Sequence record: MN148435 | DNA from: Shigella phage SGF2 | Length of the DNA: 64,000 bases | Reading direction: 5' to 3' (one strand) | Shown: piece after piece, positions 50,085-51,455 of the stretch | Layout of the letters: every line of letters begins with the position of its first letter | How positions within the stretch are numbered: position 1 is the first letter of the stretch | Translations under genes and position numbers: made by a program | Notes under the pieces: generated by a model | What the model was told of the DNA's origin: nothing | Database searches by the model: none | What the model saw: the letters and a program-made list of their open reading frames with translations, nothing else

Positions 50085-51455
50085 TTAGTTATTTGTTTCC
50101 ATGTCAAAAGAGATTCCACGACCCGCTTCATCGGCAAACCGAACTGTACGGGCTTGAGGTTCTAATACTTCAGGGTTGTTAGCAATAAAGCGATCAGCGA
50201 GACTGCGGCTGACAGCCTCAGCGAGTTCCTCATGAGAAGGAGTATCAAGATCGGAGAGACTGCCTACCACATCTTGGGCCACACCTTCATCAGTCCACAC
50301 AGCCCTAACAGGTGCGTTGATATCACCAACAGCAAAACCCTGACCAGAGAACTGACGTGCGCTAACAGTTAAACCGTTTGGTCGACCACGAGAGGGTCTA
50401 GCCATCCATCGCTCCATAGAATCACTTGTAATACCAAGAGCTTCTTCAAAAGATGTTCTACGAGTAGGGCTTTCTCTTCGTGACTCTTGTGCTCGACGCA
50501 TTGCAGGGGCTACAAAAACCCCTTCAATTGCATTGTGTCGGTTAGGTTCATCTTCCCGACCAAGGAGATCCCCTCCTGTATTAGTTGTTAAATTTGTCAA
50601 CCCTTCAGACCAATACGCACGAATCTGACCAGAGCCATGAACACTTGACATTAACTGAATTTCTTCGTAAGGGATTCCAAAGAATCGACTCATGTCTCGG
50701 TTAACACAATATTGAGCACTTGTTGTATCCTCAACATGAGCAACCTGACCTCGTTCGTTGACCAGATGACTAACTGGTTGAGGTGTAGGAAGGTATCGAG
50801 TTTGTGCCATATATTGATATGCAACAGATGGAGCGGAGAATCTTAATACCTGTGAATTAGGCCACTTCTTGTGAACGTATCTGATTTCACGACTAGAAAC
50901 AACCACAGGGCAAGGAGCGGTCATAGCTAAATATCCATGAGGAGTCATGAATAAGCTGTCAAGAGTTATCGCACCACGGCACATCATAGGAAAATTATCC
51001 AATACCTCTTCAATAGAAGTAGGATAATTAAACATGAATTGAATGCGGGTTCCATTCCACTGAAACTCAATAATATCAGTGAATGTTAATTGAGAACCCC
51101 CAGCATAGGATTCGTTTGTAGCTTCAGCAAGAAGGGATGCATACTCGATATCTTGTGACTCTAGCCATTCCTTCACATTACTTTCAATCTCTCTTCCAAG
51201 AGCTTGCCAACGATCAGTTGGGGTGAATGTGTTTTGAGTTATTGGTGTTTGTCCTCTGACAATAAAGATATCAATGTCATGTGGAGCTGTGTTATTAAGC
51301 ACAGCATCTCGAACAGCCCCACCAGTAATGATGGGACAGATACCGTCTGGAACCAAGTTGTTGTTAATCAACTGTTCAATGAAGTGACGACCAACAGTGA
51401 TATCAGGTTGTTGAGCAACCTTATCTTCAATTCGGTTAATCGGGATAACAATCAT
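50085..51455 (-). CDS. Pol-beta superfamily nucleotidyltransferase (CCA-adding / poly(A) polymerase head-like)
   Basis: ITGGAVRDAVL...HDIDIFI = GGxVRD plus DxD motif; ATG 51455 (MIVIPINRI) sits 2 nt after exonuclease stop. Confidence 0.5.
   Translation of the reverse strand: MIVIPINRIEDKVAQQPDITVGRHFIEQLINNNLVPDGICPIITGGAVRDAVLNNTAPHDIDIFIVRGQTPITQNTFTPTDRWQALGREIESNVKEWLESQDIEYASLLAEATNESYAGGSQLTFTDIIEFQWNGTRIQFMFNYPTSIEEVLDNFPMMCRGAITLDSLFMTPHGYLAMTAPCPVVVSSREIRYVHKKWPNSQVLRFSAPSVAYQYMAQTRYLPTPQPVSHLVNERGQVAHVEDTTSAQYCVNRDMSRFFGIPYEEIQLMSSVHGSGQIRAYWSEGLTNLTTNTGGDLLGREDEPNRHNAIEGVFVAPAMRRAQESRRESPTRRTSFEEALGITSDSMERWMARPSRGRPNGLTVSARQFSGQGFAVGDINAPVRAVWTDEGVAQDVVGSLSDLDTPSHEELAEAVSRSLADRFIANNPEVLEPQARTVRFADEAGRGISFDMETNN

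Follow-up and report, generated by a model that had tools for sequence, protein, structure and literature searches.

What does the nucleotidyltransferase (NTase) gene in the replication operon of Shigella phage SGF2 do? In this study, we addressed this question in a 64,000-nucleotide (nt) stretch of that phage (sequence record MN148435; hereafter, the window), in which the gene lies at 50,085-51,455 on the minus strand. An initial annotation, made from the sequence alone, had described a 456-amino-acid (aa) open reading frame (ORF) with a GGxVRD...DxD signature, had assigned it to the Pol-beta-type NTases with a head like that of CCA-adding enzymes and poly(A) polymerases (PAPs), and had proposed tRNA 3'-end repair, RNA tailing or a nucleotide second-messenger activity. 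Our results point instead to a relationship with Gad2 (Gabija anti-defence 2), which is among the few enzymes known to inhibit a bacterial defence system. The best overall explanation is an active Gad2-like accessory NTase that probably serves counter-defence, to which we give a little less than even confidence.

Active-site residues and domain layout of the NTase

The window NTase was identical over its full length (100%) to the NCBI entry "nucleotidyltransferase domain-containing protein" of Shigella phage SGF2. Its best phage matches were Kuravirus genomes, with phage DE5 the closest (95.6% amino-acid identity), and its orthologues include phiEco32 gp73, SU10 CDS74 and Bas91_0067. Kuravirus belongs to the subfamily Gordonclarkvirinae, phiEco32-like podophages of E. 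coli that have prolate C3 heads. The SU10 orthologue is an expressed protein detected by mass spectrometry (PMC4281155). A longer alternative GTG start at 51512 would run into the upstream gene, and all 25 of 25 diverse homologues begin at a position equivalent to the ATG (M-[IYLF]-x-[IV]-[P..]), which favours the ATG as the start. Within Kuravirus, the ratio of nonsynonymous to synonymous divergence (dN/dS) was 0.13 for the NTase domain and 0.36 for the tail, and this purifying selection indicates a real, functional coding gene. GenBank and PHROGs already label the gene as a nucleotidyltransferase (phrog_12715, 'nucleotidyltransferase', E 8e-263; the distant phrog_1614, E 2e-7), while searches of NCBIfam and PADLOC with the window NTase gave no match.

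The ORF and its signature were both confirmed. The segment ITGGAVRDAVL...HDIDIFI occupies residues 43-66 (GGAVRD...HDIDIF, residues 45-64), and the pattern GGx[VIL]RD-x5-15-DxD had a single match in all six translated frames of the window, compared with a mean of 0.005 over 200 shuffled windows. Residues G45, G46, R49, D50, D60 and D62 were invariant in the 25 homologues, which are 21-34% identical to the window NTase; the loss of catalytic aspartates that would have counted against the assignment was therefore not observed. Further residues invariant across the same 25 sequences were Y117, I128, Q139, P156, Y193 and K197. The initial annotation had found no recognised motifs in about 350 aa of the protein. 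This description holds only for residues ~291-456, which are variable and predicted to be disordered, whereas a conserved and confidently folded domain with these additional invariant residues reaches residue ~290 and includes a conserved helix and a [WYF]-[ST]-x-G motif at about residues 250-286. On the helix at residues 188-197, the segment Y193-V-H-K196-K197 is a candidate phosphate- or substrate-binding element. The window NTase is best explained as a minimal ("head-only") nucleotidyltransferase of the Pol-beta/class II type that is competent for catalysis, with a domain of ~290 residues followed by a tail of ~170 residues predicted to be disordered (Table 1).

Relationship to Gad2-like nucleotidyltransferases

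The placement of the NTase was examined with a profile hidden Markov model (HMM), A7, made of 17 short head-only phage NTases tagged with the Pfam family PF26128 and containing neither Gad2 nor sequences of the phage subfamily Gordonclarkvirinae. The A7 profile scored 66.4 bits (E 1.5e-16) on the window NTase and 44-58 bits on six of its distant orthologues. The verified Gad2 proteins of SPbetaL7 and Brevibacillus laterosporus, taken from the supplementary tables of the preprint 10.1101/2023.05.01.538930, scored 47.2 and 44.7 bits, and E. coli PcnB and Cca scored 19.7 and 13.2 bits. When the Gordonclarkvirinae NTase family (A4) was aligned with A7 by hhalign, the probability was 99.25% (E 5.7e-20, 144 columns), and A7 aligned with Gad2 at a probability of 96.9% (E 1.4e-10). 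A search of 5.8e9 proteins with A7 recovered a Kuravirus orthologue (P0042) at E 4.6e-15. Many Kuravirus orthologues and short relatives carry a precomputed PF26128 ('Gad2') tag, which is marked 'weak' for one orthologue (P0015, 85-86% identical). No SPbeta-like phages were recovered by tblastn with short family members, and our literature search found no paper tying the Kuravirus NTase gene to Gad2.

At the residue level, the glycine pair of motif A aligned with G31 G32 of Gad2, the DxD aspartates with D45/D47, Q139 with Q88, F155 with F105, and C159 with C110. Gad2 (of SPbetaL7 and of a Brevibacillus laterosporus prophage) and the window NTase are thus alike in being phage-encoded and in having an N-terminal NTase head, GG, DxD, the strand glutamine and F-x-...-C. 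They differ in the motif A sequence, which is GGAITS in Gad2 and the canonical GGAVRD in the window NTase (T-S versus R49-D50), and in genomic setting, as Gad2 lies in a variable anti-defence locus whereas the window gene has a constant place within a replication operon. The short head-only phage NTases (PHROG 1614/PF26128-tagged, ~185-315 aa), such as LUZ24 gp42 and phiAS7_00003, share the catalytic core and the motifs with the window NTase, and LUZ24 gp42 also has a C-terminal extension with an aromatic-acidic end. Compared with them, the Gordonclarkvirinae clade is larger, with insertions at residues ~67-125, an alpha/beta extension at 160-290, a long tail, a proline in place of an aspartate, and a different fixed genomic position. 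These comparisons make it highly probable that the Gordonclarkvirinae NTase forms a divergent subfamily (PHROG 12715) of the phage-specific, head-only Gad2-like (PF26128) NTases.

Comparison with CCA-adding enzymes, poly(A) polymerases and other nucleotidyltransferases

A Foldseek search against the PDB returned 39 matches at E<=1e-3, 38 of which were class II CCA-adding-type tRNA nucleotidyltransferases, and the modelled structure has the head-domain fold of class II tRNA nucleotidyltransferases and poly(A) polymerases. The Pfam profile PolyA_pol (PF01743) covered the window NTase at profile positions 3-83 of 126 with E 8e-4. At the fold level, these results bear out a Pol-beta-superfamily NTase with a class II CCA/poly(A)-polymerase-like head. 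The score of the PolyA_pol match, 20.2 bits, remained under the gathering cut-off of 23, and the orthologues scored 13-22 bits.

A tRNA 3'-end (CCA) repair enzyme, or an RNA 3'-tailing poly(A)-type polymerase acting during infection, would agree with the closest solved folds, those of class II CCA-adding enzymes and of E. coli PAP, and with the canonical GGAVRD...DxD of the window NTase, including the R-D that Gad2 lacks. Full-length CCA-adding enzymes are known from phages (PMC7824862). RNA repair also occurs in the lineage, as a metagenomic relative (L012, SRR26402686) has, a few kb downstream, genes for RtcB, an RNA ligase, and for a Macro domain; the two adjoin ThyX at 12001-13616 of that contig, and neither is present in the window. 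The similarity to CCA enzymes, however, was limited to about 20 residues. A PDB search with the family profile aligned CCA enzymes over residues 43-63 (motif A) only, at E 0.09-1.5, and a PDB sequence search with the single window protein gave only a chance match to a ribosomal protein. By hhalign, the alignment of the NTase family with E. coli Cca was restricted to the surroundings of motif A, and that with E. coli PcnB was not significant (probability 0.4%). Class II CCA enzymes and PAP I (PF01743) have motif B ([RK]RD), motif D ([ED]DxxR) and helical neck, body and tail domains in an architecture of ~350-470 aa. In contrast, neither motif was found at any conserved position in the 25 family members, and the window NTase has no such RNA-binding domains, its C-terminus being disordered and variable.

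The wider family gave a similar picture. A HMMER search of 1.84e9 representative proteins with the family profile yielded 48 matches at E<=1e-3, comprising ~26 full-domain relatives of 274-482 aa together with proteins of ~200 aa or fragments; none was of canonical CCA/PAP length, as judged by length and not by individual annotation of the proteins. A Streptococcus pneumoniae protein described as a 'CCA-adding enzyme head domain' (NP_344798.1, PDB 2la3) is cellular, 191 aa long and less similar to the window NTase than full CCA enzymes are. The 64-kb window contains no tRNA genes, and cca and pcnB are already present in the host. Because the NTase has no parts for tRNA or RNA recognition or for C/A templating, it should not be read as a tRNA-repair enzyme. 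The missing motifs and domains thus leave both tRNA repair and RNA tailing, as initially proposed, not supported, and we regard this explanation as improbable. A non-canonical activity of the NTase on RNA ends keeps some probability.

The third activity initially proposed, a nucleotide second messenger, fared no better. The window NTase matched none of the cGAS/DncV-like (CD-NTase) or MenT/AbiEii family HMMs, and its closest fold was neither CD-NTase nor MenT. A second-messenger or decoy synthase of the cGAS/DncV-like type, or a small-molecule or protein nucleotidylyltransferase unrelated to nucleic-acid ends, is therefore very unlikely. The features of family X DNA polymerases and terminal transferases (palm with fingers, thumb and 8-kDa domains, and closest fold) were likewise not found in the window NTase.

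Conservation of the operon and divergence of the NTase

The order helicase, exonuclease, NTase and dCTP deaminase (DCD) was the same in all loci examined, which came from three genera of the International Committee on Taxonomy of Viruses (ICTV) and four lineages of metagenomic origin and whose identity went as low as 21-26%. In relatives, a 4-nt overlap between the exonuclease and NTase genes is common; in the window they are separated by 1 nt (TAA-A-ATG), not by the 2 nt initially given. In the phage database, the helicase (>=80% identity) was found in 96 records and the NTase in 96, with corresponding identity bands, a comparison in which totals were matched but accessions were not compared; the NTase thus appears to be present in all Gordonclarkvirinae records.

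Within this constant order, divergence was far greater in the NTase than in the genes around it. When the window was compared with other genera or lineages, identity was 78-94% for the helicase, 79-94% for DCD and 63-86% for the exonuclease, compared with 33-40% for the NTase domain. Within Kuravirus, the dN/dS values of the neighbours were 0.007 (helicase), 0.02 (DCD) and 0.085 (exonuclease), all lower than that of the NTase domain, in which synonymous divergence was raised as well.

The sister phage ECO319P1, a Crifsvirus (Grimontviridae, OP172790.1) whose helicase is 57.6% identical, carries helicase, exonuclease and DCD in the same order at 27055-30043, with a 144-nt spacer. Two HMMs and a motif scan detected no NTase anywhere in its 75-kb genome. 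The replication operon thus works without the NTase, which is not part of the ancestral module. NTase and DCD as a co-inherited pair was also ruled out, since the ECO319P1 DCD occupies the same place without an NTase; that DCD is annotated just as 'hypothetical protein'. A tblastn match to Klebsiella phage MEW1, at a gene annotated 'DNA primase' (E 0.4), lay on the opposite strand of that gene and was dismissed as chance. Taken together, a conserved active site, rapid divergence and lineage-specificity fit a variable host factor as partner better than a core replisome or metabolic role.

The C-terminal tail and a possible role at the replisome

Within the NTase family, tail length runs from 41 to 249 aa. 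In the window NTase it is of low complexity and net acidic, and it ends ...ISFDMETNN. The last residue was aromatic in 9 of the 25 family members, compared with 1.8 expected (P=4e-5, in a calculation that ignores phylogenetic non-independence). Very distant members have aromatic-acidic tips, such as ...SFDMETNN in the window (50088-50114, minus) and ...LWIDEASAG in LUZ24 gp42 (L014, 7870-7897), and the tip of the EP335 NTase, ...VWMDESDSIAD (L003, 5246-5278), fits the same pattern. The shared pattern and the aromatic enrichment suggest that the tip is a short linear motif for docking. On T7 gp2.5, T7 gp4 and E. coli SSB, an acidic tail tipped by an aromatic residue serves for docking on replisome partners, and by analogy the NTase tail may tether the enzyme to a partner protein.

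One explanation that would draw on such a tail is a replisome accessory terminal transferase, tethered to the T7-like replisome and acting on DNA 3' ends (termini, nicks or Okazaki fragments) independently of immunity, for replication, concatemer formation or end protection. The disordered tail with its enriched C-terminal aromatic resembles the docking tips of T7 gp2.5, T7 gp4 and SSB. Motif B contacts the ribose 2'-OH in CCA enzymes, and its absence would permit the use of deoxynucleotides (dNTPs). In a tight operon, the NTase gene invariably comes immediately behind the genes for the T7 gp5-type exonuclease and the gp4-type helicase, and distant head-only relatives occur in replication modules of podophages with T7-type replisomes. 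The LUZ24 gp42 gene overlaps the end of a 5'-3' exonuclease gene, phiAS7_00003 of an Aeromonas phage lies between ligase and DNA polymerase, and a metagenomic head-only member (L022) is near a PolA gene; other relatives are in unrelated contexts. LUZ24-like and phiEco32-like phages have in common the split polymerase as well as the amidoligase and amidotransferase genes (PMC3517423).

Several results speak against this explanation. The ECO319P1 replication module functions without an NTase, and a partner of replisome proteins that are 80-99% conserved should not drop to 33-40% identity. No DNA-binding domain was recognised in the window NTase, and tight spacing is general in the operon, so that "coupling" to the exonuclease is weak evidence. 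We therefore consider a replisome role of this kind rather unlikely.

Restriction resistance and a possible role in DNA modification

Gordonclarkvirinae are remarkably resistant to restriction and to other tested defences (Humolli et al. 2025, PMC11990801). This strong resistance to restriction-modification comes with no known modification pathway. Those authors point to the DCD and NTase locus and speculate that it encodes a DNA modification (PMC11990801). In such a scheme, the NTase would be a DNA-modification or nucleotide-metabolism enzyme working with the adjacent DCD, for example on a non-canonical base, and would explain the restriction resistance of the subfamily.

The position of the NTase gene among DCD, ThyX, thioredoxin and replication genes agrees with this proposal. 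Sites for EcoRV (33), EcoKI (11) and EcoP1I (96) were not depleted in the window, so site avoidance does not account for resistance to these three systems. Other sites were depleted, with 5 CCWGG compared with 75 expected and 133 GATC compared with 239. Thirteen six-base palindromes were absent from the window, including the BamHI, PstI, KpnI, SacI and SphI sites, while CAGCAG was over-represented (89, compared with 22-29 expected). With CCWGG, GATC and GC-rich palindromes depleted and EcoRV, EcoKI and EcoP1I sites not, site avoidance could explain restriction resistance only in part. A 77-aa protein encoded at 46139-46372 (minus) matched phrog_4452, 'anti-restriction nuclease', and at the corresponding position metagenomic relatives encode a 64-66-aa protein with PF20600 (ExoX-like_C); the window protein could bear on restriction or RecBCD evasion.

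Against a modification role, DCD does not need an NTase, as the exonuclease-DCD arrangement of ECO319P1 has none. DCD and ThyX form an ordinary dTTP-supply route, and ThyX speaks against DNA containing dU. To our knowledge, a class II-type NTase head occurs in none of the known pathways of DNA hypermodification. An enzyme acting on a fixed metabolite would moreover be expected to be as conserved as DCD, yet the identity of the NTase domain is far lower. These results make an enzyme of DNA modification or nucleotide metabolism an unlikely explanation as well.

A possible role in counter-defence

Gad2 is the second of the Gabija anti-defence proteins that Yirmiya et al. described. Its knock-out in SPbetaL7 makes this phage susceptible to Gabija, the Brevibacillus laterosporus homologue abolishes Gabija defence, and AlphaFold predicts an NTase domain in Gad2 (Yirmiya et al., 10.1101/2023.05.01.538930). 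According to a 2026 review, Gabija acts at phage DNA ends without RecBCD activity and blocks circularisation and end joining (PMC12904381). By analogy with Gad2, we tentatively propose that the function of the window NTase is counter-defence, although our confidence in this function on its own is clearly short of even. The reported resistance of Gordonclarkvirinae to tested defences (PMC11990801) agrees with such a role. The NTase would be made alongside the replication proteins as an accessory enzymatic counter-defence factor. Its GG...DxD two-metal site would transfer a nucleotidyl group onto a target, for which a DNA 3' end, a host immune protein and a nucleotide ligand are candidates. The transfer would neutralise a host nuclease-type immune system, such as Gabija, that acts at phage DNA ends, probably one that engages phage DNA while it is replicating or linear. 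Docking of the NTase on a partner protein would fall to the variable tail, which has an aromatic residue at its tip or close to it.

A more far-reaching and speculative version, which we think unlikely to hold in full, is that Gad2-like head-only NTases form a widespread enzymatic counter-defence class whose members carry out nucleotidylylation independently of a template, either at genome termini or at the replication fork, with the tail as an SSB/gp2.5-like docking peptide. Such enzymes might cap or extend phage DNA 3' ends, or nucleotidylylate a host sensor, and thereby keep end-sensing nuclease systems from engaging, among them Gabija and perhaps those of the Shedu, OLD or Ppl type.

A number of points weigh against a Gad2-like counter-defence enzyme. 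The exact window NTase has no PF26128 tag on record, and our local Pfam scan never gave PF26128, even for strongly tagged proteins. The clade profile scored only 20 and 9 bits on the two Gad2 proteins, and direct hhalign comparison gave a probability of 43% (E 2.4e-4) with motif A alone aligned; as this direct similarity is marginal, the link between the NTase and Gad2 is transitive through the short head-only family. The aspartate of the F-D-x-x-x-C motif (D106 in Gad2), invariant in A7 and the broad family, is replaced by the invariant Pro156 in the Gordonclarkvirinae clade, and the C-terminal ~230 residues of Gad2 have no sequence counterpart in the window NTase, which has the disordered tail instead. 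Apparent universality and a fixed spot in a replication and nucleotide-metabolism operon are atypical, as anti-defence genes are usually patchy. Weak constraint outside the active site could be another cause of the fast evolution of the NTase. The experimentally tested family members are two, from Bacillus and Brevibacillus phages, and the BASEL defence panel used on Gordonclarkvirinae did not include Gabija. The mechanism of Gad2 is still unknown according to the 2026 review (PMC12904381).

Neighbouring genes and other features of the window

The features of the NTase and of the conserved block around it are listed in Table 1. Past DCD, the operon continues with small ORFs, a Dps/ferritin-like DNA-binding protein, thioredoxin and ThyX.

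Table 1. Coordinates of the NTase gene, its elements and its operon neighbours in the window
Feature	Coordinates	Strand	Description
NTase coding sequence	50085..51455	minus	456 aa plus stop; stop codon 50085-50087; ATG start
Conserved folded catalytic domain, residues 1-~290	50586..51455	minus	Pol-beta/class II-type NTase head plus small alpha/beta extension
Motif A, G45 G46 A V R49 D50...H D60 I D62	51270..51323	minus	NTP-/metal-binding glycine turn and two catalytic aspartates
Gln139, strand 'RIQFMF'	51039..51041	minus	Invariant in family; aligned with Gad2 Q88
F155-P156-M-M-C159	50979..50993	minus	Counterpart of Gad2 F-D-x-x-x-C (F105-D106...C110); occupies the place of motif B (RRD) of CCA enzymes
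Y193-V-H-K196-K197	50865..50879	minus	On helix at residues 188-197; Y193 and K197 invariant
Variable tail, residues ~291-456	50088..50585	minus	Predicted disordered; predicted local distance difference test (pLDDT) <50 for 287-456
T7 gp4-like primase-helicase	52005..53795	minus	First gene of conserved block; 7-nt overlap with exonuclease gene
Stand-alone 3'-5' exonuclease, 184 aa	51457..52011	minus	Aligned to T7 gp5 residues 3-182; stop 1 nt before NTase ATG
dCTP deaminase (DCD)	49542..50075	minus	Start 9 nt past NTase stop

The T7-type DNA polymerase is split in the window into this exonuclease and a 614-aa polymerase subunit at 40819-42663 (minus), whose C-terminus corresponds to gp5 496-704, the two being ~9 kb and ~25 genes apart. 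Relatives retain the exonuclease C-terminus, ...DPPSLYWKM. The possibility that the exonuclease is an RNase D-like tRNA-trimming partner was ruled out by its alignment to the T7 gp5 exonuclease domain and by the separate 614-aa gp5 polymerase part. The interval that separates the DNA polymerase gene from the PhoH-like gene (44741-45478) holds an HNH homing-endonuclease gene at 43886-44377 (minus), which has the look of a mobile insertion differing from relative to relative.

Directly downstream of DCD, three small paralogues abut one another at 48926-49135, 49135-49344 and 49344-49541 (minus; 69, 69 and 65 aa), all ending ...KV(I/H/Y)Y. The product of 48926-49135 belongs to phrog_4939, of unknown function, and relatives seem to differ in how many of these small genes they carry. 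The region 54015-61425 (minus) encodes gamma-glutamyl cyclotransferase (GGACT), an ATP-grasp protein (RimK/Ddl-like), a class II glutamine amidotransferase, Amidoligase_2 and a further ligase-like gene. This cluster is conserved in Gordonclarkvirinae and has been reported in the LUZ24-like phage tf; ECO319P1 also encodes the amidoligase, GATase and GGACT. A sigma-factor-like protein (phrog_1740) is encoded at 35553-36200 (minus), with a phosphatase-like gene adjoining at 36220-36660; we take the former to be the counterpart of phiEco32 gp36.

Implications

The labels 'class II CCA-adding enzyme domain' and 'tRNA nucleotidyltransferase/poly(A) polymerase' are misleading for this family, as they imply tRNA repair, and are corrected here. 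In E. coli phages that are abundant and used in therapy, the NTase stands out as a hypervariable insertion in a replication operon that otherwise hardly varies. Should the counter-defence role prove wrong, it would still be an uncharacterised enzyme conserved throughout a phage subfamily. The BASEL phages Bas86-93 offer a genetically tractable E. coli system for what Gad2-type enzymes transfer, and onto what. If the broader proposal of an enzymatic counter-defence class is true, it would supply the missing mechanism of Gad2 and might explain part of the defence resistance of these phages.

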